Source: Eledone cirrhosa (Eukaryota). Taken from it: 64,000 bases of DNA. The notes under the pieces were generated by a model, which saw nothing but the letters and a program-made list of their open reading frames with translations, did not search any database and had not been told where the DNA came from. Both the position numbers and the translations under genes were made by a program. The stretch covers positions 176,266,001 to 176,330,000 of the forward strand of contig OZ024740.1 in assembly GCA_964016885.1 (NCBI GenBank), in the 5' to 3' direction. Below, one piece after another: positions 7,779-63,398 of the stretch. How positions within the stretch are numbered: the stretch's first letter is position 1; every line of letters begins with the position of its first letter.

Positions 7779-7813
7779 TACATTACAATGCGCGAAAGTA
7801 TTACTATAAACAA
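7779..7813 (+). pseudogene. Degenerate 35-nt copy of the B-type micro-exon at the array edge
   Basis: CTCTTAACAG|TACATTACAATGCGCGAAAGTATTACTATAAACAA|GTGATA; homologous, but not a multiple of 3, and the exonic -1 G is lost. Confidence 0.5.
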
Positions 7814-8706: not shown

Positions 8707-8745
8707 TAGATGACAATGAAGCACGAAACTATTACCATACAACAG
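8707..8745 (+). CDS. Divergent B-type 39-nt micro-exon ([13 protein letters not shown] in phase 1)
   Basis: TTCTTATCTATTTACAG|TAGATGACAATGAAGCACGAAACTATTACCATACAACAG|GTGATA; length and splice sites are kept despite many substitutions. Confidence 0.62.
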
Positions 8746-24783: not shown

Positions 24784-24830
<47 letters not shown>

Positions 24831-27800
24831 GCTATCCCCCTCTTTTAGTCTGTCTGTTTCTTTCACTCTCACTCTTTCTCTTTATAACTCACTTACATTA
24901 ATACTAAAGGGTTAAGGTATTGTTCTCAAAATAAATAATATTAAATCTGAGATTTTTATGTTATGTGAGATAAAGCCTTTACCATGAAAATAATATAGTA
25001 TATATAGAGTAATGTAAATGCTAAAGGGTTAATTCCATCAGACCATGTGAGAAAGTTTATAATCACTCACGCACACATACACACTCACGCATGCAAACGC
25101 ACAAAATCTCACACACAGACACGCGCACGTACACACACACACACGCAATAGTTATTCCACTGTCATGTAACTTTGACGCATACAACTCTCAAAAGACGGC
25201 GTCTGTCATCATATCTCTCCCGCCCTATCCCCCTGTTTTAGTCTGTCTGTTTCTTTCACTCTCACTCTTTCTCTCTGTAACTCGTTCACATTTCTCCCCT
25301 CTATCGAAAAACGCTGTTACGAATGGGGAGAAGGAGGAGCCACTTCTTTACTTCGCCTCTCCATTTCTTTCTCTCGCCTCTCACCCCCTCATTATGTACA
25401 GACATTGGTCACTTCACTAATTCGATCCCTAGCTCAGAATAATTTGAATTTTTTTGCTCAAAACACTTCCGGGGCCATACGGGCTACATGTGTAAAGTTT
25501 GCAAAAAAATAACGGTTGGGTACTTCTCGAGTTTTAGGGAAACAGACACACAGACAGACATCCTCTGTTTTATATAGCATAGGCACCCGGCGTTGCCCGG
25601 GAATGACATTTTATTTTAAAGCCCATCTTTGAATGTTGTTTTTGAACGTGAATTAGACGTTTAAAAAATATATATTAAACCGTCTACAAATGTAATGCAC
25701 AAACATGTGTGCAGAAATAGACGAAGATGCACAGAAACACACAAATAGCCGCAACGGAGATATTTATACACATATGCATAAACCAGCCAAACTACCTAAT
25801 TTGTAGCATTCTATTTCAATCATGATGATATATAGAGCATCTCTATGACTATAGTTTGTTATTGAATACATACAAAAGCTGATGATAAAATATGATGATA
25901 TGTAGCGCACCAAAATCATGATGACATGTAGTGCACCTCTAGGAGATGTGTTTTCAGCAATCACTATGATATACTTAAGAAATATTATTCAAAATCTACA
26001 ATCAGTTATTTCCTTCATGCATAATATTACGACACCACTATTAGAAATCAGATTTCATATACATGAAATACACATAACCATTTACGTTACATAAGATACT
26101 GAAGGTGAGACGTTATGTTTTGGATGGCAGTATCGGAAGAGGGTCGGACGCCATGCTTTGTAGCATAGTTACGTCCCTTTACAGTCTGAGATCAAACCCG
26201 CCGAGGTTAACTTTGCCTTTCATCCATACGGGATCGATAAAATAAAGTACCAGTAATGTACTGGATAATTGCTGGCCTTGTGCCTAAAGTAGAAATATTT
26301 ATGTTTAACTCCCAGTTAGGCTTAACTAAGTCTGGCACGTATTACTGGTTTTCTTGATATTATCTATGAAAGTTTACAAGCGCATTATATGTTCTAATAT
26401 ATATAATCCTTTTTTCTTTTTTGTTTACAGAACCTAACGAGGTACCACGAAAAGATTCCCATACAACAGGTGATATGATGAAACATCTTTTATTGTATTA
26501 TATATACATCTTTATATACATAACTCTTTTACATGATATATATGGAAGATGGGAATTAGGTGGCAGAAGGTAGCGTTCAATTTCTAGATCAGTATATATA
26601 TATATGTTATGTAACAACAAGAACGTATTTGGAAGAAGTGTGTTTTCTGTATCAATGTAACAACTATGTTTGATGAATTTATATTATTTCAAAGATCAAT
26701 TTTGAAATCTCTTTTTGAACGTAAACTTGACGTTTCTATATTATTTAACTTTCAACAAGTGTAATGCAAAAATATGTGTGTTAGAAGTTACACAGAAACA
26801 CACAAACACCCGCCTCACATATATGTTACACACAGTCACAAATTTCAAGCACACACGAATAAACACACCAAACTGCCCATTTTGTATGTTTTATTAAAAA
26901 CGTTATGATATATAGAAGAATTTTGTGACTAACAGTTGGTAGAGAATACATACAAAAGCTGATATCTTTAGCGTCTCTGAAATCAAACGGCAGAATTAAA
27001 TTAATTTTCCGAATTCAATTAATCAAGGAAAGTAAGTTCAGCCGATCAGAACGGACACAAATACCCTAGTCAACATAAACTGAAGTGTGGCTAAAAGATG
27101 GGTTTTCAGCAATCACTATCATATATAAAATAAATATTATTTAAAATATACTTGCGCTCAATCAGTTATTTCATACATACCCCATAGTAGGAAACCACTG
27201 TTTGAAATCAGATTTCATAAACATGAAATATACAGAACCATTTACGTCACATTAGATACTGAAGGTGAGAGGTTATGTTTAACTCTCAGAGAGGTTTAAC
27301 TAATTTTGGAACGTATTTCTGTTCTTTTTTAAATGTTACGTATAATCGATTCCAAACGCAATATATTTTCTATAATATATATTTCTTTATTCTTTTCTAT
27401 TAACAGTATATGACAACACACCACGAAGCTATTATTATACCACAGGTGATATGATGGAAAATGTTATATTTTATTATATATACTTCTTTAAATACATAAC
27501 TCTTTACATAATATATATGGAACAATTCGAATACAAAATAGAAAGTAGGGTTCAATAACTCCATGAGTATATATGTTTTATACAAACAAGAATGTATTTG
27601 GGAGTCGTGTGTTTCCTCTACGATTATAGCATCCTCATTTTATAAATTTATTTTATTTTAACGCCCACTTTTGAATCTTGATTTTGAACGTGAATTAGAC
27701 GTTTAAAAGGAATATTAAACCGTCTACAAATTTAATGAGTGCAGAAATATACGAAGATGCACAGAAACTCACAATTGGCCGCAACGGAGATATTTATACA

Positions 27801-30800
27801 AATATGCATAAACCAGCCAAACTACATTATTTGTAGCAATGTATTTCAATCATGATGATATATAGAGCAGCTCTAAGACTATAGTTTGTTATTGAATACA
27901 TACAAAAGCTGATGATAAAATATAATGATATGTAGCGCACCCCAATCATGAATACATGTAGTGCACCTCTAGGAGATGTGTTTTCAGCAATCACTATGAT
28001 ATACTTAAGAAATATTATTCAAAATCTACAACCAGTTATTTTATTCATACACCATATTAGGAAACCACTGTTAGAAATCATATTTCATATACATGAAATA
28101 CACATAACCATTTACGTTACATAAGATACTGAAGGTGAGACGTTATGTTTAACTCCCAGTTAGGCTTAAATAAGTCTGGCACCTATTACTGATTTTCTTG
28201 ATATTATCTATGAAAGTTTACAAGCGCATTATATGTTCTAATATATATATTTCTTTGTTCTTTTTTGTTTACAGAACCTAGCGAAGTACCAGGAAAAGAT
28301 TCCCATACAACAGGTGATATTATGAAACATCTTTTACTGTATTATATATACTTCTTTATATACATAACTCTTTTACATGATATATATGGAAAATGGGAAT
28401 TAGGGAGCAGAAGGTAGCGTTCAATTTCTAGATGAGTATATATATATATGTTATGTAACAACAAGAACGTATTGGGAAGAAGTGTGTTTTCTGTATCAAT
28501 GTAAGAACCATGCTTGATGAATTTATATTATTTTAAAGATCAATTTTGAAACCTCTATTTGATCGTAAAATTGACGTTTCTATATTATTTAACTTTAAAC
28601 AAATGTAATGCAAAAATATGTGTGTTAGAAGTTACACAGAAACACACAAACACCCGCCTCACATATACGCTACACACAGTCACAAATTTCAAGCTAAAGT
28701 GTGGCTAAAAGATGGGTTTTTAGTATATCATGTATATGAAATCAGATTTCATATACATGAAATACACATAACCATTTACGTTACATAAGATACTGAAGGT
28801 GAGACGCTATGTTTAACTCCCAGTTAGGCTTAAATATGTCTGGCACCTATTACTGATTTTCTTGATATTATCTATGAAAGTTTACAAGCGCATTATATGT
28901 TCTAATATATATATTTCTTTGTTCTTTTTTGTTTACAGAACCTAGCGAAGTACCAGGAAAAGATTCCCATACAACAGGTGATATGATGAAACATCTTTTA
29001 CTGTATTATATATACTTCTTTATATACATAACTCTTTTACATGATATATATGGAAAATGGGAATTAGGGAGCAGAAGGTAGCGTTCAATTTCTAGATGAG
29101 TATATATATATATATATATATATGCTATGTAACAACAAGAACGTATTTGGGAGAAGTGTGTTTTCTGTATCAATGTAAGAACCATGCTTGATGAATTTAT
29201 ATTATTTTAAAGATCAATTTTGAAACCTCTATTTGATCGTAAAATTGACGTTTCTATATTATTTAACTTTAAACAAATGTAATGCAAAAATATGTGTGTT
29301 AGAAGTTACACAGAAACACACAAACACCCGCCTCACATATATGCTACACACAGTCACAAATTTCAAGCTAAAGTGTGGCTAAAAGATGGGTTTTTAGTAT
29401 ATCATGTATATGAAATCAGATTTCATATACATGAAATACACATAACCATTTACGATACATAAGATACTGAAGGTGAGACGCTATGTTTAACTCCCAGTTA
29501 GGCTTAAATATGTCTGGCACCTATTACTGATTTTCTTGATATTATCTATGAAAGTTTACAAGCGCATTATATGTTCTAATATATATATTTCTTTGTTCTT
29601 TTTTGTTTACAGAACCTAACGAGGTACCACGAAAAGATTCCCATACAACAGGTGATATGATGAAACATGTTTTATTGTATTATATATACTTCTTTATATA
29701 CATAACTCTTTTACATGATATATATGGAAGATGGGAATTAGGTGGTAGAAGGTAGCGTTCAATTTCTAGATGAGTATATGTATATATATGTTATGTAACA
29801 ACAAGAACGTATTTGGAAGAAGTGTGTTTTCTGTATCAATGTAACAACCATGCTTGATGAATTTATATTATTTTAAAGATGAATTTTGAAACCTCTTTTT
29901 GAACGTAAATTTGACGTTTCTATATTATTTAACTTTAAACAAATGTAATGCAAAAACATGCGTGTAGGAAGTTACACAGAAACACACAAACACCCGCCTC
30001 ACATATATGTTACACACAGTCACACATTTCAAGCACACACGAATAAACACACCAAACTGCCCATTTTGTATGTTTTATTAAAAACATTATGATATATAGA
30101 AGAATTTTGTGACTAACAGTTGGTAGAGAATACATACAAAAGCTGATATCTTTAGCGTCTCTGAAATCAAACGGCAGAGTTAAATTAATTTTCCGAATTC
30201 AATTAATCAAGGAAAGTAAGTTCAGCCGATCAGAACGGACACAAATACCCTAGTCAACATAAACTGAAGTGTGGCTAAAAGATGGGTTTTCAGCAATCAC
30301 TATCATATATAAAATAAATATTATTTAAAATATACTTGCGCTCAATCAGTTATTTCATACATACCCCATAGTAGGAAACCACTGTTTGAAATCAGATTTC
30401 ATAAACATGAAATATACAGAACCATTTACGTCACATTAGATACTGAAGGTGAGAGGTTATGTTTAACTCTCAGAGAGGTTTAACTAATTTTGGAACGTAT
30501 TTCTGTTCTTTTTTAAATGTTACGTATAATCGATTCCAAACGCAATATATTTTCTATAATATATATTTCTTTATTCTTTTCTATTAACAGTATATGACAA
30601 CACACCAGGAAGCTATTATTATACCACAGGTGATATGATGGAAAATGTTATATTTTATTATATATACTTCTTTAAATACATAACTCTTTACATAATATAT
30701 ATGGAACAATTCGAATACAAAATAGAAAGTAGGGTTCAATAACTCCATGAGTATATATGTTTTATACAAACAAGAATGTATTTGGGAGTCGTGTGTTTCC

Positions 30801-33800
30801 TCTACGATTATAGCATCCTCATTTTATAAATTTATTTTATTTTAACGCCTACTTTTGAATGTTGTTTTTGAACGTGAATTAGACGTTTAAAAGGAATATT
30901 AAACCGTCTACAAATTTAATGAGTGCAGAAATATACGAAGATGCACAGAAACTCACAATTGGCCGCAACGGAGATATTTATACAAATATGCATAAACCAG
31001 CCAAACTACATTATTTGTAGCAATGTATTTCAATCATGATGATATATAGAGCAGCTCTAAGACTATAGTTTGTTATTGAATACATACAAAAGCTGATGAT
31101 AAAATATGATGATATGTAGCGCACCCCAATCATGAATACATGTAGTGCACCTCTAGGAGATGTGTTTTCAGCAATCACTATGATATACTTAAGAAATATT
31201 ATTCAAAATCTACAACCAGTTATTTTATTCATACACCATATTAGGAAACCACTGTTAGAAATCATATTTCATATACATGAAATACACATAACAATTTACG
31301 TTACATAAGATACTGAAGGTGAGACGTTATGTTTAACTCCCAGTTAGGCTTAAATAAGTCTGGCACGTATTACTGATTTTCTTGATATTATCTATGAAAG
31401 TTTACAAGCGCATTATATGTTCTAATATATATATTTCTTTGTTCTTTTTTGTTTACAGAACCTAGCGAAGTACCAGGAAAAGATTCCCATACAACAGGTG
31501 ATATGATGAAACATCTTTTATTGTATTATATATACTTCTTTATATACATAACTCTTTTACATGATATATATGGAAAATGGGAATTAGGGAGCAGAAGGTA
31601 GCGTTCAATTTCTAGATGAGTATATATATATATGTTATGTAACAACAAGAACGTATTTGGAAGAAGTGTGTTTTCTGTATCAATGTAAGAACCATGCTTG
31701 ATGAATTTATATTATTTTAAAGATCAATTTTGAAACCTCTATTTGATCGTAAAATTGACGTTTCTATATTATTTAACTTTAAACAAATGTAATGCAAAAA
31801 TATGTGTGTTAGAAGTTACACAGAAACACACAAACACCCGCCTCACATATACGCTACACACAGTCACACATTTCAAGCTAAAGTGTGGCTAAAAGATGGG
31901 TTTTTAGTATATCATGTATATGAAATCAGATTTCATATACATGAAATACACATAACCATTTACGTTACATAAGATACTGAAGGTGAGACGCTATGTTTAA
32001 CTCCCAGTTAGGCTTAAATATGTCTGGCACCTATTACTGATTTTCTTGATATTATCTATGAAAGTTTACAAGCGCATTATATGTTCTAATATATATATTT
32101 CTTTGTTCTTTTTTGTTTACAGAACCTAGCGAAGTACCAGGAAAAGATTCCCATACAACAGGTGATATGATGAAACATCTTTTACTGTATTATATATACT
32201 TCTTTATATACATAACTCTTTTACATGATATATATGGAAAATGGGAATTAGGGAGCAGAAGGTAGCGTTCAATTTCTAGATGAGTATATATATATATATA
32301 TATGCTATGTAACAACAAGAACGTATTTGGGAGAAGTGTGTTTTCTGTATCAATGTAAGAACCATGCTTGATGAATTTATATTATTTTAAAGATCAATTT
32401 TGAAACCTCTATTTGATCGTAAAATTGACGTTTCTATATTATTTAACTTTAAACAAATGTAATGCAAAAATATGTGTGTTAGAAGTTACACAGAAACACA
32501 CAAACACCCGCCTCACATATATGCTACACACAGTCACAAATTTCAAGCTAAAGTGTGGCTAAAAGATGGGTTTTTAGTATATCATGTATATGAAATCAGA
32601 TTTCATATACATGAAATACACATAACCATTTACGATACATAAGATACTGAAGGTGAGACGCTATGTTTAACTCCCAGTTAGGCTTAAATATGTCTGGCAC
32701 CTATTACTGATTTTCTTGATATTATCTATGAAAGTTTACAAGCGCATTATATGTTCTAATATATATATTTCTTTGTTCTTTTTTGTTTACAGAACCTAAC
32801 GAGGTACCACGAAAAGATTCCCATACAACAGGTGATATGATGAAACATGTTTTATTGTATTATATATACTTCTTTATATACATAACTCTTTTACATGATA
32901 TATATGGAAGATGGGAATTAGGTGGTAGAAGGTAGCGTTCAATTTCTAGATGAGTATATGTATATATATGTTATGTAACAACAAGAACGTATTTGGAAGA
33001 AGTGTGTTTTCTGTATCAATGTAACAACCATGCTTGATGAATTTATATTATTTTAAAGATGAATTTTGAAACCTCTTTTTGAACGTAAATTTGACGTTTC
33101 TATATTATTTAACTTTAAACAAATGTAATGCAAAAACATGCGTGTAGGAAGTTACACAGAAACACACAAACACCCGCCTCACATATATGTTACACACAGT
33201 CACACATTTCAAGCACACACGAATAAACACACCAAACTGCCCATTTTGTATGTTTTATTAAAAACATTATGATATATAGAAGAATTTTGTGACTAACAGT
33301 TGGTAGAGAATACATACAAAAGCTGATATCTTTAGCGTCTCTGAAATCAAACGGCAGAGTTAAATTAATTTTCCGAATTCAATTAATCAAGGAAAGTAAG
33401 TTCAGCCGATCAGAACGGACACAAATACCCTAGTCAACATAAACTGAAGTGTGGCTAAAAGATGGGTTTTCAGCAATCACTATCATATATAAAATAAATA
33501 TTATTTAAAATATACTTGCGCTCAATCAGTTATTTCATACATACCCCATAGTAGGAAACCACTGTTTGAAATCAGATTTCATAAACATGAAATATACAGA
33601 ACCATTTACGTCACATTAGATACTGAAGGTGAGAGGTTATGTTTAACTCTCAGAGAGGTTTAACTAATTTTGGAACGTATTTCTGTTCTTTTTTAAATGT
33701 TACGTATAATCGATTCCAAACGCAATATATTTTCTATAATATATATTTCTTTATTCTTTTCTATTAACAGTATATGACAACACACCAGGAAGCTATTATT

Positions 33801-36800
33801 ATACCACAGGTGATATGATGGAAAATGTTATATTTTATTATATATACTTCTTTAAATACATAACTCTTTACATAATATATATGGAACAATTCGAATACAA
33901 AATAGAAAGTAGGGTTCAATAACTCCATGAGTATATATGTTTTATACAAACAAGAATGTATTTGGGAGTCGTGTGTTTCCTCTACGATTATAGCATCCTC
34001 ATTTTATAAATTTATTTTATTTTAACGCCTACTTTTGAATGTTGTTTTTGAACGTGAATTAGACGTTTAAAAGGAATATTAAACCGTCTACAAATTTAAT
34101 GAGTGCAGAAATATACGAAGATGCACAGAAACTCACAATTGGCCGCAACGGAGATATTTATACAAATATGCATAAACCAGCCAAACTACATTATTTGTAG
34201 CAATGTATTTCAATCATGATGATATATAGAGCAGCTCTAAGACTATAGTTTGTTATTGAATACATACAAAAGCTGATGATAAAATATGATGATATGTAGC
34301 GCACCCCAATCATGAATACATGTAGTGCACCTCTAGGAGATGTGTTTTCAGCAATCACTATGATATACTTAAGAAATATTATTCAAAATCTACAACCAGT
34401 TATTTTATTCATACACCATATTAGGAAACCACTGTTAGAAATCATATTTCATATACATGAAATACACATAACAATTTACGTTACATAAGATACTGAAGGT
34501 GAGACGTTATGTTTAACTCCCAGTTAGGCTTAAATAAGTCTGGCACGTATTACTGATTTTCTTGATATTATCTATGAAAGTTTACAAGCGCATTATATGT
34601 TCTAATATATATATTTCTTTGTTCTTTTTTGTTTACAGAACCTAGCGAAGTACCAGGAAAAGATTCCCATACAACAGGTGATATGATGAAACATCTTTTA
34701 TTGTATTATATATACTTCTTTATATACATAACTCTTTTACATGATATATATGGAAAATGGGAATTAGGGAGCAGAAGGTAGCGTTCAATTTCTAGATGAG
34801 TATATATATGTTATGTAACAACAAGAACGTATTTGGAAGAAGTGTGTTTTCTGTATCAATGTAAGAACCATGCTTGATGAATTTATATTATTTTAAAGAT
34901 CAATTTTGAAACCTCTATTTGATCGTAAAATTGACGTTTCTATATTATTTAACTTTAAACAAATGTAATGCAAAAATATGTGTGTTAGAAGTTACACAGA
35001 AACACACAAACACCCGCCTCACATATACGCTACACACAGTCACACATTTCAAGCTAAAGTGTGGCTAAAAGATGGGTTTTTAGTATATCATGTATATGAA
35101 ATCAGATTTCATATACATGAAATACACATAACCATTTACGTTACATAAGATACTGAAGGTGAGACGCTATGTTTAACTCCCAGTTAGGCTTAAATATGTC
35201 TGGCACCTATTACTGATTTTCTTGATATTATCTATGAAAGTTTACAAGCGCATTATATGTTCTAATATATATATTTCTTTGTTCTTTTTTGTTTACAGAA
35301 CCTAACGAGGTACCACGAAAAGATTCCCATACAACAGGTGATATGATGAAACATGTTTTATTGTATTATATATACTTTTTATATACATAACTCTTTTACA
35401 TGATATATATGGAAGATGGGAATTAGGTGGTAGAAGGTAGCGTTCAATTTCTAGATCAGTATATATATATATATGTTATGTAACAACAAGAACGTATTTG
35501 GAAGAAGTGTGTTTTCTGTATCAATGTAACAACCATGCTTGATGAATTTATATTATTTTAAAGATCAATTTTGAAACCTCTTTTTGAACGTAAATTTGAC
35601 GTTTCTATATTATTTAACTTTAAACAAATGTAATGCAAAAGCATGCGTATAGGAAGTTACACAGAAACACACAAACACCAGCCTCACATATATGTTACAC
35701 ACAGTCACACATTTCAAGCACACACGAATAAACACACCAAACTGCCCATTTTGTATGTTTTATTAAAAACATTATGATATATAGAAGAATTTTGTGACTA
35801 ACAGTTGGTAGAGAATACATACAAAAGCTGATATCTTTAGCGTCTCTGAAATCAAACGGCAGAATTAAATTAATTTTCCGAATTCAATTAATCAAGGAAA
35901 GTAAGTTCAGCCGATCAGAACGGACACAAATACCCTAGTCAACATAAACTGAAGTGTGGCTAAAAGATGGGTTTTCAGCAATCACTATCATATATAAAAT
36001 AAATATTATTTAAAATATACTTGCGCTCAATCAGTTATTTCATACATACCCCATAGTAGGAAACCACTGTTTGAAATCAGATTTCATAAACATGAAATAT
36101 ACAGAACCATTTACGTCACATTAGATACTGAAGGTGAGAGGTTATGTTTAACTCTCAGAGAGGTTTAACTAATTTTGGAACGTATTTCTGTTCTTTTTTA
36201 AATGTTACGTATAATCGATTCCAAACGCAATATATTTTCTATAATATATATTTCTTTATTCTTTTCTATTAACAGTATATGACAACACACCAGGAAGCTA
36301 TTATTATACCACAGGTGATATGATGGAAAATGTTATATTTTATTATATATACTTCTTTAAATACATAACTCTTTACATAATATATATGGAACAATTCGAA
36401 TACAAAATAGAAAGTAGGGTTCAATAACTCCATGAGTATATATGTTTTATACAAACAAGAATGTATTTGGGAGTCGTGTGTTTCCTCTACGATTATAGCA
36501 TCCTCATTTTATAAATTTATTTTATTTTAACGCCCACTTTTGAATCTTGATTTTGCACGTGAATTATACGTTTAAAAGGAATATTAAACCGTCAATAAAA
36601 TTAATGAGTGCAGAAATATACGAAGATGCACAGAAACTCACAATTGGCCGCAACGGAGATATTTATACACATATGCATAAACCAGCCAAACTACCTAATT
36701 TGTAGCAATGTATTTCAATCATGATGATATATAGAGCAGCTCTAAGACTATAGTTTGTTATTGAATACATACAAAAGCTGATGATAAAATATGATGATAT

Positions 36801-48800: not shown

Positions 48801-51800
48801 CAGTTGGTAGAGAATACATACAAAAGCTGATATCTTTAGCGTCTCTGAAATCAAACGGCAGAATTAAATTAATTTTCCGAATTCAATTAATCAAGGAAAG
48901 TAAGTTCAGCCGATCAGAACGGACACAAATACCCTAGTCAACATAAACTGAAGTGTGGCTAAAAGATGGGTTTTCAGCAATCACTATCATATATAAAATA
49001 AATATTATTTAAAATATACTTGCGCTCAATCAGTTATTTCATACATACCCCATAGTAGGAAACCACTGTTTGAAATCAGATTTCATAAACATGAAATATA
49101 CAGAACCATTTACGTCACATTAGATACTGAAGGTGAGAGGTTATGTTTAACTCTCAGAGAGGTTTAACTAATTTTGGAACGTATTACTGTTCTTTTTTAA
49201 ATGTTACGTATAATCGATTCCAAACGCAATATATTTTCTATAATATATATTTCTTTATTCTTTTCTATTAACAGTATATGACAACACACCAGGAAGCTAT
49301 TATTATACCACAGGTGATATGATGGAAAATGTTATATTTTATTATATATACTTCTTTAAATACATAACTCTTTACATAATATATATGGAACAATTCGAAT
49401 ACAAAATAGAAAGTAGGGTTCAATAACTCCATGAGTATATATGTTTTATACAAACAAGAATGTATTTGGGAGTCGTGTGTTTCCTCTACGATTATAGCAT
49501 CCTCATTTTATAAATTTATTTTATTTTAACGCCTACTTTTGAATGTTGTTTTTGAACGTGAATTAGACGTTTAAAAGGAATATTAAACCGTCTACAAATT
49601 TAATGAGTGCAGAAATATACGAAGATGCACAGAAACTCACAATTGGCCGCAACGGAGATATTTATACAAATATGCATAAACCAGCCAAACTACATTATTT
49701 GTAGCAATGTATTTCAATCATGATGATATATAGAGCAGCTCTAAGACTATAGTTTGTTATTGAATACATACAAAAGCTGATGATAAAATATGATGATATG
49801 TAGCGCACCCCAATCATGAATACATGTAGTGCACCTCTAGGAGATGTGTTTTCAGCAATCACTATGATATACTTAAGAAATATTATTCAAAATCTACAAC
49901 CAGTTATTTTATTCATACACCATATTAGGAAACCACTGTTAGAAATCATATTTCATATACATGAAATACACATAACCATTTACGTTACATAAGATACTGA
50001 AGGTGAGACGTTATGTTTAACTCCCAGTTAGGCTTAAATAAGTCTGGCACGTATTACTGATTTTCTTGATATTATCTATGAAAGTTTACAAGCGCATTAT
50101 ATGTTCTAATATATATATTTCTTTGTTCTTTTTTGTTTACAGAACCTAGCGAAGTACCAGGAAAAGATTTCCATACAACAGGTGATATTATGAAACATCT
50201 TTTACTGTATTGTATATACTTCTTTATATACATAACTCTTTTACATGATATATATGGAAAATGGGAATTAGGGAGCAGAAGGTAGCGTTCAATTTCTAGA
50301 TGAGTATATATATATATATATATGTTATGTAACAACAAGAACGTATTTGGAAGAAGTGTGTTTTCTGTATCAATGTAAGAACTATGCTTGATGAATTTAT
50401 ATTATTTTAAAGATCAATTTTGAAACCTCTATTTGATCGTAAAATTGACGTTTCTATATTATTTAACTTTAAACAAATGTAATGCAAAAATATGTGTGTT
50501 AGAAGTTACACAGAAACACACAAACACCCGCCTCACATATATGCTACACACAGTCACAAATTTCAAGCTAAAGTGTGGCTAAAAGATGGGTTTTTAGTAT
50601 ATCATGTATATGAAATCATATTTCATATACATGAAATACACATAACCATTTACGTTACATAAGATACTGAAGGTGAGACGCTATGTTTAACTCCCAGTTA
50701 GGCTTAAATATGTCTGGCACCTATTACTGATTTTCTTGATATTATCTATGAAAGTTTACAAGCGCATTATATGTTCTAATATATATATTTCTTTGTTCTT
50801 TTTTGTTTACAGAACCTAACGAGGTACCACGAAAAGATTCCCATACAACAGGTGATATGATGAAACATCTTTTATTGTATTATATATACTTCTTTATATA
50901 CATAACTCTTTTACATGATATATATGGAAGATGGGAATTAGGTGGTAGAAGGTAGCGTTCAATCTCTAGATGAGTATATATATATATATATGTTATGTAA
51001 CAACAAGAACGTATTTGGAAGAAATGTGTTTTTTGTATCAATGTAAGAACCATGCTTGATGAATTTATATTATTTTAAAGATCAATTTTGAAACCTCTTT
51101 TTGAACGTAAATTTGACGTTTCTATATTATTTAACTTTAAACAAATGTAATGCAAAAGCATATTATCTATGAATGTTTTCAAGCGCATTATATGTTCTAA
51201 TATATATTTATTCCTCTGTTCTTTTTTGTTTACAGAACCTAACGAAGTACCAGGAAAAGATTCCCATACAACAGGTGATATGATGGACGATCTTTTATTG
51301 TATTATACATACTTCTTTCTAGACATAACTCTTTTACATGATATATATGGAAAATTGGAATTAGGTGGCAGAAGGTAGCGTCCAATTTCTAGATGAGTAT
51401 ATATATATATATGTTATTTAACAACAAGAACTTATTTGGAAGAAGTATGTTTTCTGTATCAATGTAACAACCATGCTTGATGAATTTATATTATTTCAAA
51501 GATCAATTTTGAATCCTCTTTTTGAACGTAAACTTGACGTTTCAATATTATTTAACTTTAAACAAATGTAATGCAAAAGCATGCGTGTAGGAACTTACAC
51601 AGAAACACACAAACTCCCGCCTCACATATATGCTACACCCAGTCACAAATTTCAAGTACACACGAATAAACACACCAAACTGCCCATTTTGTATGTCTTA
51701 TTAAAAACATTATGATATATAGAAGAATTTTGTGACTAACAGTTGGTAGAGAATACATACAAAAGCTGATATCTTTAGCGTCTCTGAAATCAAACGGCAG

Positions 51801-54800
51801 AATTAAATTAATTTTCCGAAGTCAATTAATCAAGGAAAGTAAGTTCAGCAGATCAGAACGGACACAAATACCCTAGTCAACATTAACTGAAGTGTGGCTA
51901 AAAGATGGGTTTTCAGCAATCACTATCATATATAAAATAAATATTATTAAAATATACTTGTGCTCAATGAGTTATTTCATACATACCCCATAGTAGGAAA
52001 CCACTGTTTGAAATCAGATTTCATAAACATGAAATATACAGAACCTTTTACGTCACATTAGATACTGAAGGTGAAAGGTTATGTTTAACTCTCAGAGAGG
52101 TTTAACTAATTTTGGAACGTATTTCTGTTCTTTTTTAAATGTTACGTATAATCGATTCCAAACGCAATATATTTTCTATAATATATATTTCTTTATTCTT
52201 TTCTATTAACAGTATATGACAACGCACCACGAAGCTATTATTATACAACAGGTGATATGATGGAACATGTTATATTTTATTATATATACTACTTTAAATA
52301 CATAACTCTTTACATAATATATATGGAACAATTCGAATAAATAATAGAAAGTAGGGTTCAATAACTCCATGAGTATATATGTTATATACAAACAAGAACG
52401 TATTTGGGAGTCGTGTGTTTCCTCAACGATTATAGCATCCTCATTTTATAAATTTATTTTATTTTAACGCCCATTTTTGAATGTTGTTTTTGAACGTGAA
52501 TTAGACGTTTAAAAGAAATATTAAACCGTCTACAAATTTAATGCACAAACATGTGTGCAGAAATAGACGAAGATGCACAGAGACTCACAAATGGCCGCAA
52601 CGGAGATATTTATACAAATATGCATAAACTAGCCAAACTACCTAAATTGTAGCAATTTATTTCAATCATGATGATATATAGAGCAGCTCTAAGACTATAG
52701 TTTGTTATTGAATACATACAAAAGCTGATGATAAAATATGATGATATGTAGCGCACCAAAATCATGATGACATGTAGTGCACCTCTAGGAGATGTGTTTT
52801 CAGCAATCACTATGATATACTTAAGAAATATTATTCAAAATCTACAACCTGTTATTTTATTCATACACCATATTAGGAAACCACTGTTAGAAATCAGATT
52901 TCATATACATGAAATACACATAACCATTTACGTTACATAAGATACTGAAGGTGAGACGTTATGTTTAACTCCCAGTTAGGCTTAAATAAGTCTGGAACGT
53001 ATTACTGGTTTTCTTCATATTATCTATGAAAGTTTACAAGCGCATTATATGTTCTAATATATATATTTCTTTGTTCTTTTTTGTTTACAGAACCTAACGA
53101 AGTACCAGGAAAAGATTCCCATACAACAGGTGATATGATGGACGATCTTTTATTGTATTATATATACTTCTTTATATACATAACTCTTTTATATGATATA
53201 TATGGAAAATAGGAATTAGGTGGCAGAAGGTAGCGTTCAATTTCTAGATGAGTATATATATATATATATGTTATGTAACAACAAGAACGTATTTGGAAGA
53301 AGTGTGTTTTCTGTATCAATGTAAAACGAATGCTTGATGAATTTATATTATTTTAAAGATCAATTTTGAAACCTCTTTTTGAACGTAAATTTGCCGTTTC
53401 TATATTATTTAACTTTAAACAAATGTAATGCAAAAGCATGCGTGTAGGAAGTTACACAGAAACACACAAACACCCGCCTCACATATATGCTACACACAGT
53501 CATAAATTTCAAGCACACACGAATAAACACACCAAACTGCCCATTTTGTATGTTTTATTAAAAACATTATGATATATAGAAGAATTTTGTGACTAACAGT
53601 TGGTAGAGAATACATACAAAAGCTGATATCTTTAGCGTCTCTGAAATCAAACGTCAGAATTAAATTAATTTTCCGAATTCAATTAATCAAGGAAAGTAAG
53701 TTCAGCCGATCACAACGGACACAAATACCCTAGTCAACATAAACTGAAGTGTGGCTAGAAGATGGGTTTTCAGCAATCACTATCATATATAAAATAAATA
53801 TTATTTAAAATATACTTGCGCTCAATCAGTTATTTCATACATACCCCATAGTAGGAAACCACTGTTTGAAATCAGATTTCATAAACATGAAATATACAGA
53901 ACCATTTACGTCACATTATATACTGAAGGTGAGAGGTTATGTTTAACTCTCAGAGAGGTTTAACTAATTTTGGAACGTATTTCTGTTCTTTTTTAAATGT
54001 TACGTATAATCGATTCCAAACGCAATATATTTTCTATAATATATATTTCTTTATTCTTTTCTATTAACAGTATATGACAACGCACCACAAAGCTATTATT
54101 ATACCACAGGTGATATGATGGAACATGTTATATTTTATTATATATACTTCTTTAAATACATAACTCTTTACATATTATATATGGAACAATTCGAATAAAA
54201 AATAGAAAGTAGGGTTCAATAACTCCATGAGTATATATGTTTTATACAAACAAAAATGTATTTGAGAGACGTGTGTTTCCTCTACGATTATAGCATCCTC
54301 ATTTTATAAATTTATTTTATTTTAACGTCCATTTTTGAATGTTTTTGAACGTGAATTAGACGTTTAAAAGAAATATTAAACCGTCTCCAAATTTAATGCA
54401 CAAACATGTGTGCAGAAATAGACGAAGATGCACAGAAACTCACAAATGGCAGCAACGGAGATATTTATACACATATGCATAAACCAGCCAAACTACCTAA
54501 TTGGTAGCAATTTATTTCAATTATGATGATATATAGTGCAGCTCTAAGACTATAGTTTGTTATTGAATATATACAAAAGCTGATGATAAAATATGATGAT
54601 ATGTAGCGCACCAAAATCATGATGACATGTAGTGCACCTCTAGGAGATGTGTTTTCAGCAATCACTATGATATACTTAAGAAATATTATTCAAAATCCAA
54701 CAACCTGTTATTTTATTCATACACCATATTAGGAAACAACTGTTAGAAATCAGATTTCATATACATGAAATACACATAACCATTTACGTTACATAAGATA

Positions 54801-57800
54801 CTGAAGGTGAGACGTTATGTTTAACTCCCAGTTAGGCTTAAATAAGTCTGGCACGTATTAATGGTTTTCTTGATATTATCTATGAAAGTTTACAAGCGCA
54901 TTATATGTTCTAATATATATTTATTCCTCTGTTCTTTTTTGTTTACAGAACCTAGCAAGGTACCGGGAAAAGATTCCCATACAACAGGTGATATGATGGA
55001 CGATCTTTTATTGTATTATATATACTTCTGTCTATACATAACTCTTTTACATGATGTATATGGAAAATGTGAATTAGGTGGCAGAAGGTAGCGTTCAATT
55101 TCTAGATGAGTATATATATACATATGTTATGTAACAACAAGAACTTATTTGGAAGAAGTGTGTTTTCTGTATCAATGTAACAACCATGCTTGATGAATTT
55201 ATATTATTTCAAAGATCAATTTTGAAACCTCTTTTTGAACATAAACTTGACGTTTCTATATTATTTAACTTTCAACAAGTGTAATGCAAAAATATGTGTG
55301 TTAGAAGTTACACAGAAACACACAAACACCCGCCTCACATATATGCTACACACAGTCACAAATTTCAAGCACACACGAATAAACACACCAAACAGCCCAT
55401 TTTGTATGTTTTTATTAAAAACATTATGATATATATAAGAACTTTGTGACTAACAGTTAGTATAGAATACATACAAAAGCTGATAGCTTTAGCGTCTCTG
55501 AAATCAAAAGGCAGAATTAACTTAATATTCCGAATTCAATTAATCAAGGAAAGTAAGTTCAGCCGATCAGAACGGACACAAATACCCTAGTCAACATAAA
55601 CTGAAGTGTGGCTAAAAGATGGGTTTTCAGCAATCACTATCATATATAAAATAAATATTATTTAAAATATACTTGTGCTCAATCAGTTATTTCATACATA
55701 CCCCATAGTAGGAAACCACTGTTTGAAATCAGATTTCATAAACATGAAATATACAGAACCATTTACGTCACATTAGATACTGAAGGTGAAAGGTTATGTT
55801 TAACTCTCAGAGAGGTTTAACTAATTTTGGAACGTATTTCTGTTCTTTTTTAAATGTTACGTATAATCGATTCCAAACGCAATATATTTTCTATAATATA
55901 TATTTCTTTATTCTTTTCTATTAACAGTATATGACAACGCACCACGAAGCTATTATTATACAACAGGTGATATGATGGAACATGTTATATTTTATTATAT
56001 ATACTACTTTAAATACATAACTCTTTACATAATATATATGGAACAATTCGAATAAATAATAGAAAGTAGGGTTCAATAACTCCATGAGTATATATGTTAT
56101 ATACAAACAAGAACGTATTTGGGAGTCGTGTGTTTCCTCAACGATTATAGCATCCTCATTTTATAAATTTATTTTATTTTAACGCCCATTTTTGAATGTT
56201 GTTTTTGAACGTGAATTAGACGTTTAAAAGAAATATTAAACCGTCTACAAATTTAATGCACAAACATGTGTGCAGAAATAAACGAAGATGCACAGAAACT
56301 CACAAATGGCCGCAACGGAGATATTTATACAAATATGCATAAACTAGCCAAACTACCTAATTTGTAGCAATTTATTTCAATCATGATGATATATAGAGCA
56401 GCTCTAAGACTATAGTTTGTTATTGAATACATACAAAAGCTGATGATAAAATATGATGATATGTAGCGCACCAAAATCATGATGACATGTAGTGCACCTC
56501 TAGGAGATGTGTTTTCAGCAATCACTATGATATACTTAAGAAATATTATTCAAAATCTACAACCTGTTATTTTATTCATACACCATATTAGGAAACCACT
56601 GTTAGAAATCAGATTTCATATACATGAAATACACATAACCATTTACGTTACATAAGATACTGAAGGTGAGACGTTATGTTTATCTCCCAGTTAGGCTTAA
56701 ATAAGTCTGGAACGTATTACTGGTTTTCTTCATATTATCTATGAAAGTTTACAAGCGCATTATATGTCCTAATATATATATTTCTTTGTTCTTTTTTGTT
56801 TACAGAACCTAACGAAGTACCAGGAAAAGATTCCCATACAACAGGTGATATGATGGACGATCTTTTATTGTATTATATATACTTCTTTATATACATAACT
56901 CTTTTACATGATATATATGGAAAATAGGAATTAGGTGGCAGAAGGTAGCGTTCAATTTCTAGATGAGTATATATATATATATATGTTATGTAACAACAAG
57001 AACGTATTTGGAAGAAGTGTGTTTTCTGTATCAATGTAAAACGAATGCTTGATGAATTTATATTATTTTAAAGATCAATTTTGAAACCTCTTTTTGAACG
57101 TAAATTTGCCGTTTCTATATTATTTAACTTTAAACAAATGTAATGCAAAAGCATGCGTGTAGGAAGTTACACAGAAACACACAAACACCCGCCTCACATA
57201 TATGCTACACACAGTCATAAATTTCAAGCACACACGAATAAACACACCAAACTGCCCATTTTGTATGTTTTATTAAAAACATTATGATATATAGAAGAAT
57301 TTTGTGACTAACAGTTGGTAGAGAATACATACAAAAGCTGATATCTTTAGCGTCTCTGAAATCAAACGTCAGAATTAAATTAATTTTCCGAATTCAATTA
57401 ATCAAGGAAAGTAAGTTCAGCCGATCACAACGGACACAAATAACCTAGTCAACATAAACTGAAGTGTGGCTAGAAGATGGGTTTTCAGCAATCACTATCA
57501 TATATAAAATAAATATTATTTAAAATATACTTGCGCTCAATCAGTTATTTCATACATACCCCATAGTAGGAAACCACTGTTTGAAATCAGATTTCATAAA
57601 CATGAAATATACAGAACCATTTACGTCACATTAGATACTGAAGGTGAGAGGTTATGTTTAACTCTCAGAGAGGTTTAACTAATTTTGGAACGTATTTCTG
57701 TTCTTTTTTAAATGTTACGTATAATCGATTCCAAACGCAATATATTTTCTATAATATATATTTCTTTATTCTTTTCTATTAACAGTATATGACAACGCAC

Positions 57801-60800
57801 CACAAAGCTATTATTATACCACAGGTGATATGATGGAACATGTTATATTTTATTATATATACTTCTTTAAATACATAACTCTTTACATATTATATATGGA
57901 ACAATTCGAATAAAAAATAGAAAGTAGGGTTCAATAACTCTATGAGTATATATGTTTTATACAAACAAAAATGTATTTGGGAGACGTGTGTTTCCTCTAC
58001 GATTATAGCATCCTCATTTTATAAATTTATTTTATTTTAACGCCCATTTTTGAATGTTTTTGAACGTGAATTAGACGTTTAAAAGAAATATTAAACCGTC
58101 TCCAAATTTAATGCACAAACATGTGTGCAGAAATAGACGAAGATGCACAGAAACTCACAAATGGCAGCAACGGAGATATTTATACAAATATGCATAAACC
58201 AGCCAAACTACCTAATTGGTAGCAATTTATTTCAATCATGATGATATATAGTGCAGCTCTAAGACTATAGTTTGTTATTGAATATATACAAAAGCTGATG
58301 ATAAAATATGATGATATGTAGCGCACCAAAATCATGATGACATGTAGTGCACCTCTAGGAGATGTGTTTTCAGCAATCACTATGATATACTTAAGAAATA
58401 TTATTCAAAATCCAACAACCTGTTATTTTATTCATACACCATATTAGGAAACAACTGTTAGAAATCAGATTTCATATACATGAAATACACATAACTATTT
58501 ACGTTACATAAGATACTGAAGGTGAGACGTTATGTTTAACTCCCAGTTAGGCTTAAATAAGTCTGGCACGTATTACTGGTTTTCTTCATATTATCTATGA
58601 AAGTTTACAAGCGCATTATATGTTCTAATATATATTTATTCCTCTGTTCTTTTTTGTTTACAGAACCTAGCAAGGTACCGGGAAAAGATTCCCATACAAC
58701 AGGTGATATGATGGACGATCTTTTATTGTATTATATATACTTCTGTCTATACATAACTCTTTTACATGATGTATATGGAAAATGTGAATTAGGTGGCAGA
58801 AGGTAGCGTTCAATTTCTAGATGAGTATATATATACATATGTTATGTAACAACAAGAACTTATTTGGAAGAAGTGTGTTTTCTGTATCAATGTAACAACC
58901 ATGCTTGATGAATTTATATTATTTCAAAGATCAATTTTGAAACCTCTTTTTGAACATAAACTTGACGTTTCTATATTATTTAACTTTCAACAAGTGTAAT
59001 GGAAAAATGTGTGTTAGAAGTTACACAGAAACACACAAAACACCCGCCTCACATATATGCTACACACAGTCACAAATTTCAAGCACACACGAATAAACAC
59101 ACCAAACAGCCCATTTTGTATGTTTTTATTAAAAACATTATGATATATATAAGAACTTTGTGACTAACAGTTAGTATAGAATACATATAAAAGCTGATAG
59201 CTTTAGCGTCTCTGAAATCAAACGGCAGAATTAACTTAATATTCCGAATTCAATTAATCAAGGAAAGTAAGTTCAGCCGATCAGAACGGACACAAATACC
59301 CTAGTCAACATAAACTGAAGTGTGGCTAAAAGATGGGTTTTTAGAAATCACTATCATATATAAAATAAATATTATTTAAAATATAGTTGTGCACAATCAG
59401 TTATTTCATACATACCCCATAGTAGGAAACCACTGTTTGAAATCAGATTTCATAAACATGAAATATACAGAACCATTTACGTCACATTAGATACTGAAGG
59501 TGAGAGGTTATGTTTAACTCTCAGAGAGGTTTAACTAATTTTGGAACGTATTTCTGTTCTTTTTTAAATGTTACGTATAATCGATTCCAAACGCAATATA
59601 TTTTCTATAATATATATTTCTTTATTCTTTTCTATTAACAGTATATGACAACGCACCACAAAGCTATTATTATACCACAGGTGATATGATGGAACATGTT
59701 ATATTTTATTATATATACTTCTTTAAATACATAACTCTTTACATATTATATATGGAACAATTCGAATAAAAAATAGAATGTAGGGTTCAATAACTCCATG
59801 AGTATATATGTTTTATACAAACAAGAATGTATTTGGGAGACGTGTGTTTCCTCTACGATTATAGCATCCTCATTTTATAAATTTATTTTACGTTAACGCC
59901 CATTTTTGAATGTTGTTTTTGAACGTGAATTAGACGTTTAAAAGAAATATTAAACCGTCTCCAAATTTAATGCACAAACATGTGTGCAGAAATAGACGAA
60001 GATGCACAGAAACTCACAAATGGCAGCAACGGAGATATTTATACAAATATGCATAAACCAGCCAAACTACCTAATTGGTAGCAATTTATTTCAATCATGA
60101 TGATATATAGTGCAGCTCTAAGACTATAGTTTGTTATTGAATATATACAAAAGCTGATGATAAAATATGATGATATGTAGCGCACCAAAATCATGATGAC
60201 ATGTAGTGCACCTCTAGGAGATGTGTTTTCAGCAATCACTATGATATACTTAAGAAATATTATTCAAAATCCAACAACCTGTTATTTTATTCATACACCA
60301 TATTAGGAAACCACTGTTAGAAATCAGATTTCATATACATGAAATACATATAACCATTTACGTTACATAAGATACTGAAGGTGAGACGTTATGTTTAACT
60401 CCCAGTTAGGCTTAAATAAGTCTGGCACGTATTACTGGTTTTCTTGATATTATCTATGAAAGTTTACAAGCGCATTATATGTTCTAATATATATTTATTC
60501 CTCTGTTCTTTTTTGTTTACAGAACCTAGCAAGGTACCGGGAAAAGATTCCCATACAACAGGTGATATGATGGACGATCTTTTATTGTATTATATATACT
60601 TCTTTCTATACATAACTCTTTTACATGATGTATATGGAAAATGTGAATTAGGTGGCAGAAGGTAGCGTTCAATTTCTAGATGAGTATATATATACATATG
60701 TTATGTAACAACAAGAACTTATTTGGAAGAAGTGTGTTTTCTGTATCAATGTAACAACCATGCTTGATGAATTTATATTATTTCAAAGATCAATTTTGAA

Positions 60801-63398
60801 ACCTCTTTTTGAACATAAACTTGACGTTTCTATATTATTTAACTTTCAACAAGTGTAATGCAAAAATATGTGTGTTAGAAGTTACACAGAAACACACAAA
60901 CACCCGCCTCACATATATGCTACACACAGTCACAAATTTCAAGCACACACGAATAAACACACCAAACAGCCCATTTTGTATGTTTTTATTAAAAACATTA
61001 TGATATATATAAGAACTTTGTGACTAACAGTTAGTATAGAATACATATAAAAGCTGATAGCTTTAGCGTCTCTGAAATCAAACGGCAGAATTAACTTAAT
61101 ATTCCGAATTCAATTAATCAAGGAAAGTAAGTTCAGCCGATCAGAACGGACACAAATACCCTAGTCAACATAAACTGAAGTGTGGCTAAAAGATGGGTTT
61201 TTAGAAATCACTATCATATATAAAATAAATATTATTTAAAATATAGTTGTGCACAATCAGTTATTTCATACATACCCCATAGTAGGAAACCACTGTTTGA
61301 AATCAGATTTCATAAACATGAAATATACAGAACCATTTACGTCACATTAGATACTGAAGGTGAAAGGTTATGTTTAACTCTCAGAGAGGTTTGACTAATT
61401 TTGGAACGTATTTCTGTTCTTTTTTAAATGTTACGTATAATCGATTCCAAACGCAATATATTTTCTATAATATATATTTCTTTATTCTTTTCTATTAACA
61501 GTATATGACAACGCACCACGAAGCTATTATTATACAACAGGTGATATGATGGAACATGTTATATTTTATTATATATACTACTTTAAATACATAACTCTTT
61601 ACATAATATATATGGAACAATTCGAATAAATAATAGAAAGTAGGGTTCAATAACTCCATGAGTATATATGTTATATACAAACAAGAACGTATTTGGGAGT
61701 CGTGTGTTTCCTCAACGATTATAGCATCCTCATTTTATAAATTTATTTTATTTTAACGCCCATTTTTGAATGTTGTTTTTGAACGTGAATTAGACGTTTA
61801 AAAGAAATATTAAACCGTCTACAAATTTAATGCACAAACATGTGTGCAGAAATATACGAAGATGCACAGAAACTCACAAATGGCTGCAACGGAGATATTT
61901 ATACAAATATGCATAAACCAGCCAAACTACCTAATTTGTAGCATTTTATTTCAATCATGATGATATATAGAGCAGCTCTAAGACTATAGTTTGTTATTGA
62001 ATACATACAAAAGCTGATGATAAAATATGATGATATGTAGCGCACCAAAATCATGATGACATGTAGTGCACCTCTAGGAGATGTGTTTTCAGCAATCACT
62101 ATGATATACTTAAGAAATATTATTCAAAATCTACAACCTGTTATTTTATTCATACACCATATTAGGAAACCACTGTTAGAAATCATATTTCATATACATG
62201 AAATACACATAAACATTTAGGTTACATAAGTTACTGAAGGTGAGACGCTATGTTTAACTCCCAGTTAGGCTTAAATAAGTCTGGCACGTATTACTGGTTT
62301 TCTTGATATTATCTATGAAAGTTTACAAGCGCATTATATGTTCTAATATATATATTTCTTTGTTCTTTTTTGTTTACAGAACCTAGCGAGGTACCACGAA
62401 AAGATTCCCATACAACAGGTGATATGATGAAACATCTTTTATTGTATTATATATACTTCTTTATATACATAACTCTTTTACATGATATATATTGAAAATT
62501 GGAATTAGGTGGCAGAAGGTAGCGTTCAATTTCTAGATGATTATATATATATATATGTTATGTAACAACAATTACTTATTTGGAAGAAGTGTGTTTTCTG
62601 TATCAATGTAACAACCATGCTTGATGAATTTATATTATTTCAAAGATCAATTTTGAAACCTCTTTTTGAACGTAAACTTGACGTTTCTATATTATTTAAC
62701 TTTCAACAAATGTAATGCAAAAACATGCGTGTAGGAAGTTACACAGAAACACACTAACACCCCGCCTCACATATATGCTACACACAGTCACAAATTTCAA
62801 ACACACACGAATAAACACACCAAACTGCCCATTTATTATGTTTTTATTAAAAACATTATGATATATAAAAGACCTTTGTGACTAACAGTTAGTATTGAAT
62901 ACATACAAAAGCTGATATCTTTAGCGTCTCTGAAATCAAACGACAGAATTAACTTAATATTTCGAATTCAATTAATCAAGGCAAGTAAGGTCAGCCGATC
63001 AGAACGGACACAAATACCCTAGTCAACGTAAACTGAAGTGTGGCTAGGAGATGGGTTTTCAGCAATCACTATCATATATAAAATAAATATTATTTAAAAT
63101 ATACTTGTGCACAATCAGTTATTTCATACATACCACATAGTAGGAAACCACCGTTTGAAATCAGAGTTCATAAACATGAAATATACATAACCATTTACGT
63201 CACATTAGATACTGAAGGTGAGAGGTTATGTTTAACTCTCAGAAAGGTTTAACTAATTTTGGAACGTATTTCTGTTCTTTTTTAAATGTTACGTATAATC
63301 GATTCCAAACGCAATATATTTTCTAAAATATATATTTCTTTATTCTTTTCTATTAACAGTATATGACAACGCACCACGAAGCTATTATTATACAACAG
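8707..63398 (+). CDS. Putative multi-micro-exon gene (partial): 48 symmetric exons (47 of 39 nt, one of 42 nt) encoding a Thr/Pro/Tyr-rich 13-aa repeat region
   Basis: Each unit has a pyrimidine tract + ACAG acceptor, a 39-nt exon ending (C/A)ACAG and a GT donor (GTGATA, once GTATAT). All lengths are multiples of 3 and all copies are stop-free in phase 1. A-type units show a CTAAT branch-point-like motif ~33 nt upstream. No start or stop exon was identified in the window. Confidence 0.72.
8897..9795. repeat. Minisatellite TATTACTGTTGAAAATATA with variable (TAGTA)n, ~27-32 bp unit, inside the Helitron
   Basis: About 30 directly visible copies. Confidence 0.95.
10264..10379. repeat. Inverted repeat with ~55-bp arms
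   Basis: ATAGGAAAATGTTTAACCCCTACGGCAGAGCTCAAGCCGATTCGACGGCTGTTTC pairs with GAAATAGCCGTCGAAACGGCTTGACCTCTGCCGTCGGGCTTAAACATTTTCCTAT. Confidence 0.88.
10970..11204 (-). repeat. Truncated 3' LTR of the Gypsy element
   Basis: Starts TATAACGGCGGCGAAG just after the polypurine tract; lacks the part matching 15589-16165. Confidence 0.8.
15589..16716 (-). repeat. 5' LTR of the Gypsy element (TATAACGG...CCGTTACA)
   Basis: Abuts the primer-binding site; 16501-16716 matches 11024-11204; has an internal ~92-bp duplication (15794/15886). Confidence 0.85.
17356..17397 (+). CDS. Divergent A-type 42-nt micro-exon ([14 protein letters not shown] in phase 1)
   Basis: CTTTTTCGTTTACAG|AACCACCTACCAACGAACCACGAAACGATTCCCATACAACAG|GTATAT; exactly one codon longer than the 39-nt consensus. 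Confidence 0.62.
18377..18415 (+). CDS. B-type 39-nt micro-exon ([13 protein letters not shown] in phase 1)
   Basis: TTCTATTAACAG|TATATGACAACGCACGACGAAACTATTATTTTACAACAG|GTGATA. Confidence 0.65.
19870..24388 (-). pseudogene. Helitron Rep/Helicase pseudogene
   Basis: [42 protein letters not shown] motif [26 protein letters not shown], degenerate Walker [53 protein letters not shown]. Broken into about 10 pieces. N-terminal 69-bp (23-aa) Arg/Ala-rich repeats at 24051/24120. Confidence 0.95.
24590..24828. repeat. (CA)n and (CT)n microsatellites in the Helitron 5' region
   Basis: Directly visible. Confidence 0.9.
26121..26298 (+). mobile_element. SINE (resembles abundant octopus SINEs) with an 8-bp target-site duplication
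   Basis: Absent from sister monomers; flanked by TTATGTTT at 26113-26120 and 26299-26306. Its tail GCTGGCCTTGTGCC(T/A)AAAGTAGAAA also occurs at ~9985-10045 and ~17427-17472. Confidence 0.85.
26431..62418 (+). CDS. A-type 39-nt micro-exons (29 copies), phase-1 peptide EP(S/N)(E/K)VP(G/R)KD(S/F)HTT
   Basis: Context TTTTTTGTTTACAG|AACCTAGCGAAGTACCAGGAAAAGATTCCCATACAACAG|GTGATA. Exon starts: 26431, 28275, 28939, 29613, 31459, 32123, 32793, 34639, 35299, 37145, 37809, 39657, 40321, 42171, 42838, 44686, 46536, 47206, 47629, 48293, 50143, 50813, 51236, 53091, 54949, 56806, 58664, 60523, 62380. Confidence 0.72.
27407..63398 (+). CDS. B-type 39-nt micro-exons (16 copies), phase-1 peptide VYDN(T/A)P(R/G/Q)(S/N)YYYTT
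   Basis: Context TTCTTTATTCTTTTCTATTAACAG|TATATGACAACACACCAGGAAGCTATTATTATACCACAG|GTGATA. Exon starts: 27407, 30591, 33771, 36276, 38789, 41303, 43818, 45668, 49275, 52213, 54071, 55928, 57786, 59642, 61502, 63360. Confidence 0.7.

Follow-up and report, generated by a model that had tools for sequence, protein, structure and literature searches.

Micro-exon cassettes of a candidate orphan gene for a secreted precursor in the octopod Eledone cirrhosa

What might a tandem array of 39-nt open units, each bounded by splice signals, encode in an octopod genome? Such an array lies on contig OZ024740.1 of Eledone cirrhosa, in a stretch of 64,000 nt (the window, whose base 1 is contig position 176266001) that we analyzed together with 200 kb on either side (464 kb). 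The explanation that we regard as best, and hold tentatively, is one orphan octopod gene of ~195 kb for a secreted precursor of ~1,370 residues, in which a cationic front would give rise to host-defence-type peptides and the array would encode an O-glycosylated, acidic, mucin-like spacer. That the locus is an expressed coding gene is quite probable; given such a gene, a role in defence is an evenly balanced question.

The array and how its order arose

Within the window, 45 units of 39 nt each have an AG acceptor with a T-rich tract on the 5' side and a GT donor on the 3' side (Table 1). A preliminary description had claimed two alternating types, A (EP-x-x-VP-x-KDSHTT) and B (VYDN-x-P-x-SYYYTT), and both their numbers (29 A, 16 B) and their order, ABAAABAAABAABAABAABAABABAAAABAAABABABABABABAB, were reproduced, together with the proline at position 6, the closing TT, and the four Tyr residues of B. 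The DSHTT consensus of A holds in most copies, but three of the 29 (44686, 46536, and 50143) read DFHTT. The statement that B never follows B is correct within the window (0 BB) but not beyond it, where one BB junction occurs (74760 then 80261) and the acceptor of the second B is dead. With its continuation, the array extends from 26431 to window-relative 89674 and comprises 68 units (42 A, 26 B); frame and both splice sites are kept in 65 of these 68 and in 45/45 of those in the window, and further A/B-like copies precede the array. A B exon at window-relative 89590-89635 is cut mid-exon, a deletion having joined it to the last A copy's acceptor. DNA reads of one sample, possibly from the source individual, matched several unique window pieces with 0-4 differences; read depth, about 80-245 for the main array contigs versus about 5-17 for the unique pieces, is compatible with a real multi-copy array and gives no copy number.

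Table 1. Features of the locus, in window-relative coordinates
Feature	Position	Strand	Remarks
Predicted signal-peptide exon	-76188 to -76103	+	ATG at contig position 176189837; splice-site scan
Acidic 60-nt exon	-68516	+	Splice-site scan
Upstream cluster	-49595 to -3164		17 R, three XYZ modules, one orphan X
X partner of Y at 968	-1579 to -1544		Just upstream of window
Y micro-exon	968..1006	+	39 nt, phase 1-1, FVHLINNLCNRF, one of 6 copies
Z micro-exon	1885..1929	+	45 nt, phase 1-1, RRINCHPWTLRRYN, one of 6 copies
Damaged R copy	7779..7813	+	35 nt; donor region altered, probably skipped
R copy, B-like	8707..8745	+	Stop in phase 0
R copy, A-like	17356..17397	+	42 nt (3-nt in-frame gain)
R copy, B-like	18377..18415	+	Older AB pair with 17356
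A/B array in window	26431..63398	+	45 phase 1-1 micro-exons of 39 nt (29 A, 16 B); introns 384-943 nt
Array continuation	64238-89674	+	23 further units, three B with dead acceptor
Exons downstream of array	X 90697, Y 92671, Z 93497, R 94863, dead R 96651, Y 105867, Z 106777	+	
Candidate last exons	108226, 114922, 118558	+	Stop in 118558

The derivation of A and B from one ancestral exon, proposed earlier, is borne out by their flanking introns: AB introns (~940 nt) and BA introns (~830 nt) are homologous, with a mutual alignment of 72-80%, which argues for a shared ancestor. The AA introns are of three types (625, 384, and 1176 nt), all of them chimeras with AB-intron sequence on the 5' side and BA-intron sequence on the 3' side. 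What was amplified is therefore the AB dimer of 1.86 kb; the extra A copies are AB dimers minus B, and the longer blocks (AAAB, AAB) were duplicated later. Some AB introns are identical, all such pairs in the array differ by <7%, and the intron of the older AB pair (17356 + 18377) is 7-9% diverged from the AB introns of the array. One junction, from 74760 to 80261, lost A rather than B. The earlier idea of a two-letter code is superfluous, since the order of A and B follows from AB-dimer amplification with B-deleting rearrangements. For 0 BB under random order among the 45 window units, P=2.2e-4, a value that carries no meaning, since copying took place in blocks of units. With three B-deleting intron types versus one A-deleting junction, a case for selection against BB is not made.

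Exon families, reading phase, and gene model

The A and B units belong to a 39-nt exon family, R, whose 91 full copies extend from -49595 to 96651 (146 kb), 21 before the array, 68 in it, and 2 after it. Because 9 of the 91 are damaged, the locus must be regarded as partly decaying. Older R copies are rich in His, Tyr, and Arg (e.g., HGYAPRNYYHRG), and the 14 intact copies that do not close with TT have C-terminal ends in RK/RR (seven), RG (five), RQ (one), or VI (one). Flank trees group A and B with different Arg-ending R copies, with support for the deep splits below 85, and the flanking introns of R copies are mosaic. The TT-ending A/B exons were probably derived from Arg-ending R exons, peptide cassettes having been turned into uncut spacer.

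Three more micro-exon types, with canonical splice sites and six copies each, lie between the R clusters: X (36 nt), Y (39 nt, one Cys), and Z (45 nt, one Cys). The gene order is R7, XYZ, X, R3, XYZ, R3, XYZ, R4, XYZ, R4, array, XYZ, R2, YZ. A complete XYZ module encodes 39 aa, of which residues 21 and 30 are Cys in 5/5 modules; X and Y together give a predicted helix, an amphipathic 18-mer with a moment of 0.47-0.68 (shuffle P<=0.002 in four of the five modules, 0.035 in one), and the net charge of the module is +6 to +8 in four and 0 in the last. All of the genome matches listed for B and for Z fall within this locus.

Other sequence is present in the locus as well. Helitron-type elements with PIF1 helicase pieces lie inside introns (window ~18450-25600, minus strand; also L003:2334-5954), as do a decayed LINE-type element with a YADD motif read from the sequence (window 3900-6650, plus strand) and what is probably an LTR-type element, which has a protease-like motif and two short frames that have no Pfam match (window ~11000-16250, minus strand). 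An AT-rich minisatellite of 27/59-nt period occupies window positions 8899-9796. Past each of two R exons (window ~8775 and 18452), different insertions start after 30-37 nt in similar AT-rich sequence, which suggests a preferred insertion site.

The preliminary description read the units in phase 1 and set phase 0 against it. Among 33 copies of the four exon families (6 X, 6 Y, 6 Z, and 15 R), stops occur in none in phase 1, in 15 in phase 0, and in 23 in phase 2, and the frame given earlier holds because phase 1 alone is stop-free in 33/33; A and B themselves are also open in phase 0. For the R family, a rough mutation model predicts 5.6 stops where none is observed (P about 0.003), and for X, Y, and Z taken singly, stop avoidance is not significant (P about 0.2 each). 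In phase 0, 11 of the 12 X and Y copies are closed, and so are two R copies with intact splice sites. Copies with an in-frame length change (42 or 60 nt) have intact splice sites; those of the frameshifted copies (-43967, 7779, and 96651) are damaged.

Older R copies show an excess of amino acid change. For 30 R copies on an intron tree, omega was 2.56 (2dlnL of 11.4 versus omega 1) and, in phase 0, a nonsignificant 0.87. With a free topology the values were 1.81 in phase 1 (2dlnL 4.1) and 0.66 in phase 0 (2dlnL 6.7), and by the latter value the R exons, taken without the other families, would favor phase 0 and so cannot decide against it. Parsimony steps per site, at 4.25, 4.75, and 3.17 for phase-1 codon positions 1, 2, and 3 and 2.82 for introns, fit phase-1 excess replacement better than phase-0 constraint. 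Mosaic introns may inflate omega. In X, Y, and Z, pN/pS was 1.1-1.6. The array variants, with synonymous-to-other ratios of 3:11 in A (one of the 11 being a double change to Ser) and 3:7 in B, match the site counts, so that the array by itself reveals neither constraint nor reading phase.

Secretion, which had been thought probable, gains support from the predicted signal-peptide exon 76 kb upstream, comprising an ATG, 20 codons mostly for hydrophobic residues (MYLLILYQILLNAGVILCSS), and a donor in phase 1, and kept in an intact paralog. The call was made by an ad hoc scan and paralog comparison, and at thresholds set after the exon had been seen, it is the only signal-like exon on the plus strand of the 464 kb. 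Two hydrophobic, signal-like first-exon candidates were rejected, one at -106963, which is in phase 0 and makes no in-frame join to the model, and one at -85249, where a stop arises on joining to -68516; a candidate exon at -50806 was set aside. By a strict splice scan, phase 1-1 is open in two of three candidates inside the gene ends versus 0 of 14 elsewhere. The 3' end is the weakest part of the gene model; a possible 3' untranslated exon with AATAAA lies at 118900.

Two paralogs of the signal exon lie at a distance of 23 Mb. The intact one keeps the ATG and the phase-1 donor, so that both intact signal exons end in phase 1, and is followed by phase 1-1 arrays of its own; no similarity was detected between its array exons and the exons of the A/B gene. 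The intact signal exons share 50/61 positions (82%), with the first 33 nt identical, versus 91/112 (81%) for the upstream intron, and by this alignment the exon appears no better conserved between the paralogs than that intron. The dead copy (contig 153182791-153183423, minus strand), with a TTG start, a lost donor, and an internal stop, is closer to the A/B gene than the live paralog is. At contig positions 153240539-153297830 (plus strand), the intact paralog comprises three acidic exons of 57 nt (SSAYMNYEQDDDGxLFxD) and a 45-nt exon (YKPKGKSMWND-type) present in 16 copies, one of them disrupted, in arrays with units of 2-3 kb. Lys-rich candidate exons lie downstream of these arrays (153312083 and 153320131), and contig positions 153333692-153422640 (plus strand) hold a set of recurring phase 1-1 candidates (VIRAAPTINRVPE-type), 42, 60, or 30 nt long, which belongs to the paralog gene or to a neighbor.

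Joining 104 exons produces a model with a single open reading frame of 1,374 residues, in which 101 of the exons are of 36-60 nt and phase 1-1. The model omits the damaged copies, a candidate at -66924 with a weak acceptor, and two weak-site exons, X -31535 and R -4311, that have AG/GT intact and end in T before a GA start, giving a junction stop; inclusion of X -31535 places a stop at residue 171. A and B would thus be phase-1 symmetric micro-exon cassettes in the middle of a gene in which ~100 mini-exons are spliced together in a single transcript, the gene having been enlarged and reduced by unequal recombination between repeats carried in its introns. Because every cassette is 3n in length and phase 1-1, its gain, loss, or skipping preserves the frame.

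Predicted product and competing explanations

The block copolymer of the preliminary description would make up only part of the protein, for which amphipathic modules with Cys and repeats rich in Arg and His are predicted besides. In the model, an N block of 336 aa (net charge, +63; Arg 15%, Tyr 13%, Gly 11%, His 10%) precedes an A/B tract of 885 aa (net charge, -67; Thr 16%, Pro 12%, Tyr 11%, Ser 9%, and no Cys) and a C part of 113 aa (+9); the whole has a net charge of +1 and 15 Cys in 1,374 aa. Pro, Thr, and Ser make up 37% of the A/B tract, moderate for a mucin, and RK occurs internally 20 times. No vWD, CysD, SEA, or transmembrane Pfam domain was found in 44 of 135 candidate exon frames and five model frames, scanned singly as short pieces. 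No conserved host domain was found within 200 kb, PIF1 helicase being the only Pfam match above the cut-off among the 44 of 135 candidates, a scan that excluded the A and B peptides as too short.

Cationic amphipathic helices combined with a short disulfide loop are typical of membrane-active defence peptides, which acidic pro-regions often neutralize. A defence-peptide precursor is suggested by the resemblance of the XYZ helix and Cys loop to such peptides with acidic pro-regions. On this model, each XYZ module would close one disulfide, the RK/RR ends of older R cassettes would be cleaved to release peptides, and the TT of A and B would be O-glycosylated, the tract staying uncut as a spacer. 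A more specific version, which we think improbable, is a self-neutralizing precursor: acidic TT cassettes would have been amplified until the tract (-67) offset the cationic modules (+63, +9, and -4; whole, +1), with the copy number and the skipping of exons tuning the stored charge balance, in a cephalopod family that keeps its signal exon and swaps its arrays.

Extending the preliminary description, the product might instead be an uncut structural or adhesive block polyampholyte, its cationic and acidic blocks condensing and cross-linking via Tyr/His and Cys. Tyr at 10-13% in both blocks, the His content and GHG starts of the N block, and block charges that nearly cancel all suit this reading, and the His-rich proteins of squid beak are described as coacervating by His and Tyr (PMC9999432). 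An omega above 1 and fast cassette turnover, however, are less expected in a structural protein, half of the older R copies have dibasic ends, and no chitin-binding or other host Pfam domain was found in the scanned frames; we consider such a polymer conceivable but doubtful.

Decay of the locus raises the prospect that a once-functional gene has fallen silent or been truncated and that its A/B array is a neutral, satellite-like expansion of former exons and introns. The damaged R copies, the two junction stops that appear when weak copies are included, the absence of constraint within the array, the many transposon insertions, and the dead paralog would all be accounted for. Against this, almost every array unit retains its frame and splice sites (45/45 in the window, 65/68 overall), and the ATG, the donors, and the Cys residues are intact in all complete modules, and we judge a silent locus unlikely.

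Rather less likely still is a polyprotein of the salivary (venom) or reproductive glands, with peptides acting on prey or mates and not on microbes. In its favor are the predicted signal peptide and acidic pro-piece, the dibasic ends, the signs of positive selection, and a lineage-restricted family; however, no amidated neuropeptide-like repeat was seen, and the six exon motifs are absent from a salivary-gland peptide supplement for O. vulgaris, a weak point since the species probably differs. Finally, a phase-0 reading of the units, or no coding role for them at all, is highly improbable, for all that A and B are open there and free-topology omega is below 1, given the closed X and Y copies, the stops in two intact-site R copies, and the phase-1 end of the signal exon in both intact paralogs.

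Comparison with known systems

Searches for relatives returned nothing that we could accept. A protein word-index search of single exons and translated intron flanks against longer targets gave no match at E<=10, an Atlas search gave no relative, and the one HMMER match, the singleton protein P0002, has a different 14-residue repeat and was judged to be due to chance; these negatives are weak because no spliced query could be used. The six exon motifs had 0 matches in the literature and in one supplement file each of PMC7693380 and PMC10138644. A topical literature search found no report of the A/B gene among the entries listed, a weak negative whose scope excluded subscription papers and most supplements.

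The closest likeness in genomic build is to SmPoMuc of Schistosoma mansoni, which is described as having ~1-kb repeats with one 27-bp exon each, in two intermingling types that are >93% alike, homogenized by recombination, S/T/P-rich, and predicted to be O-glycosylated (PMC2576457). The A/B gene likewise has a ~1-kb repeat per tiny exon (39 bp here), two types, and Pro/Thr/Ser-rich tandem repeats, moderately so; in contrast to what is described there, its array is set among cationic Cys-bearing modules and its amplified unit is an AB dimer. The likeness concerns genomic build only, and a sequence relation is not expected. Schistosome MEGs have coding regions almost entirely of symmetric micro-exons, a signal peptide, and a raised dN/dS in the mature part; they comprise 10-20 exons, mostly of 15 bp, and are described as flatworm restricted (PMC4350168; bioRxiv 10.1101/2023.06.21.545858). 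The A/B gene shows small symmetric exons (101/104, in a model and not a transcript) and a signal peptide predicted by ad hoc scan and paralog, but differs from that description in that its exons number ~100, measure 36-60 bp, and are for the most part tandem copies. Nor is there a sign of flatworm origin or homology, the genome being of octopod type, judging by a SINE, and the protein searches having yielded no relative.

Bee apidaecin and ant hymenoptaecin are reported as multipeptide precursors with RR/RK sites, apidaecin having one peptide per exon (PMC3415428). The A/B gene resembles apidaecin in its predicted signal, pro-piece, and repeated cationic peptides, RK/RR closing seven of the 14 older R copies, and departs from it in having no EAEP-type spacer per repeat and no Pro-rich sequence and in that most cassettes end in TT. 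A general case of exon duplication in peptide precursors is treated in PMC2853521. Two cephalopod systems differ: SepECPs are cationic secreted proteins with a common signal peptide, 50-55 Cys, three Cys-rich domains, and no repeats (PMC4500399), whereas the A/B product has 15 Cys in 1,374 aa and is highly repetitive; squid beak HBPs are His/Tyr-rich, with Gly/His pentapeptide repeats in which His is the sole charged residue (PMC9999432), whereas the repeats here are 13-mers rich in Arg, Lys, Asp, and Glu.

The A/B gene is a predicted orphan secreted-protein gene of a kind that ordinary annotation would overlook or, taking it for satellite DNA, mask. It offers two sorts of predicted candidate defence peptides, a 39-residue helix with a disulfide loop and 13-residue His/Tyr/Arg peptides. 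The precursor design is already known from schistosomes and bees; if the gene is expressed, cephalopods would have an apidaecin- or MEG-like route to fast-evolving peptide precursors.
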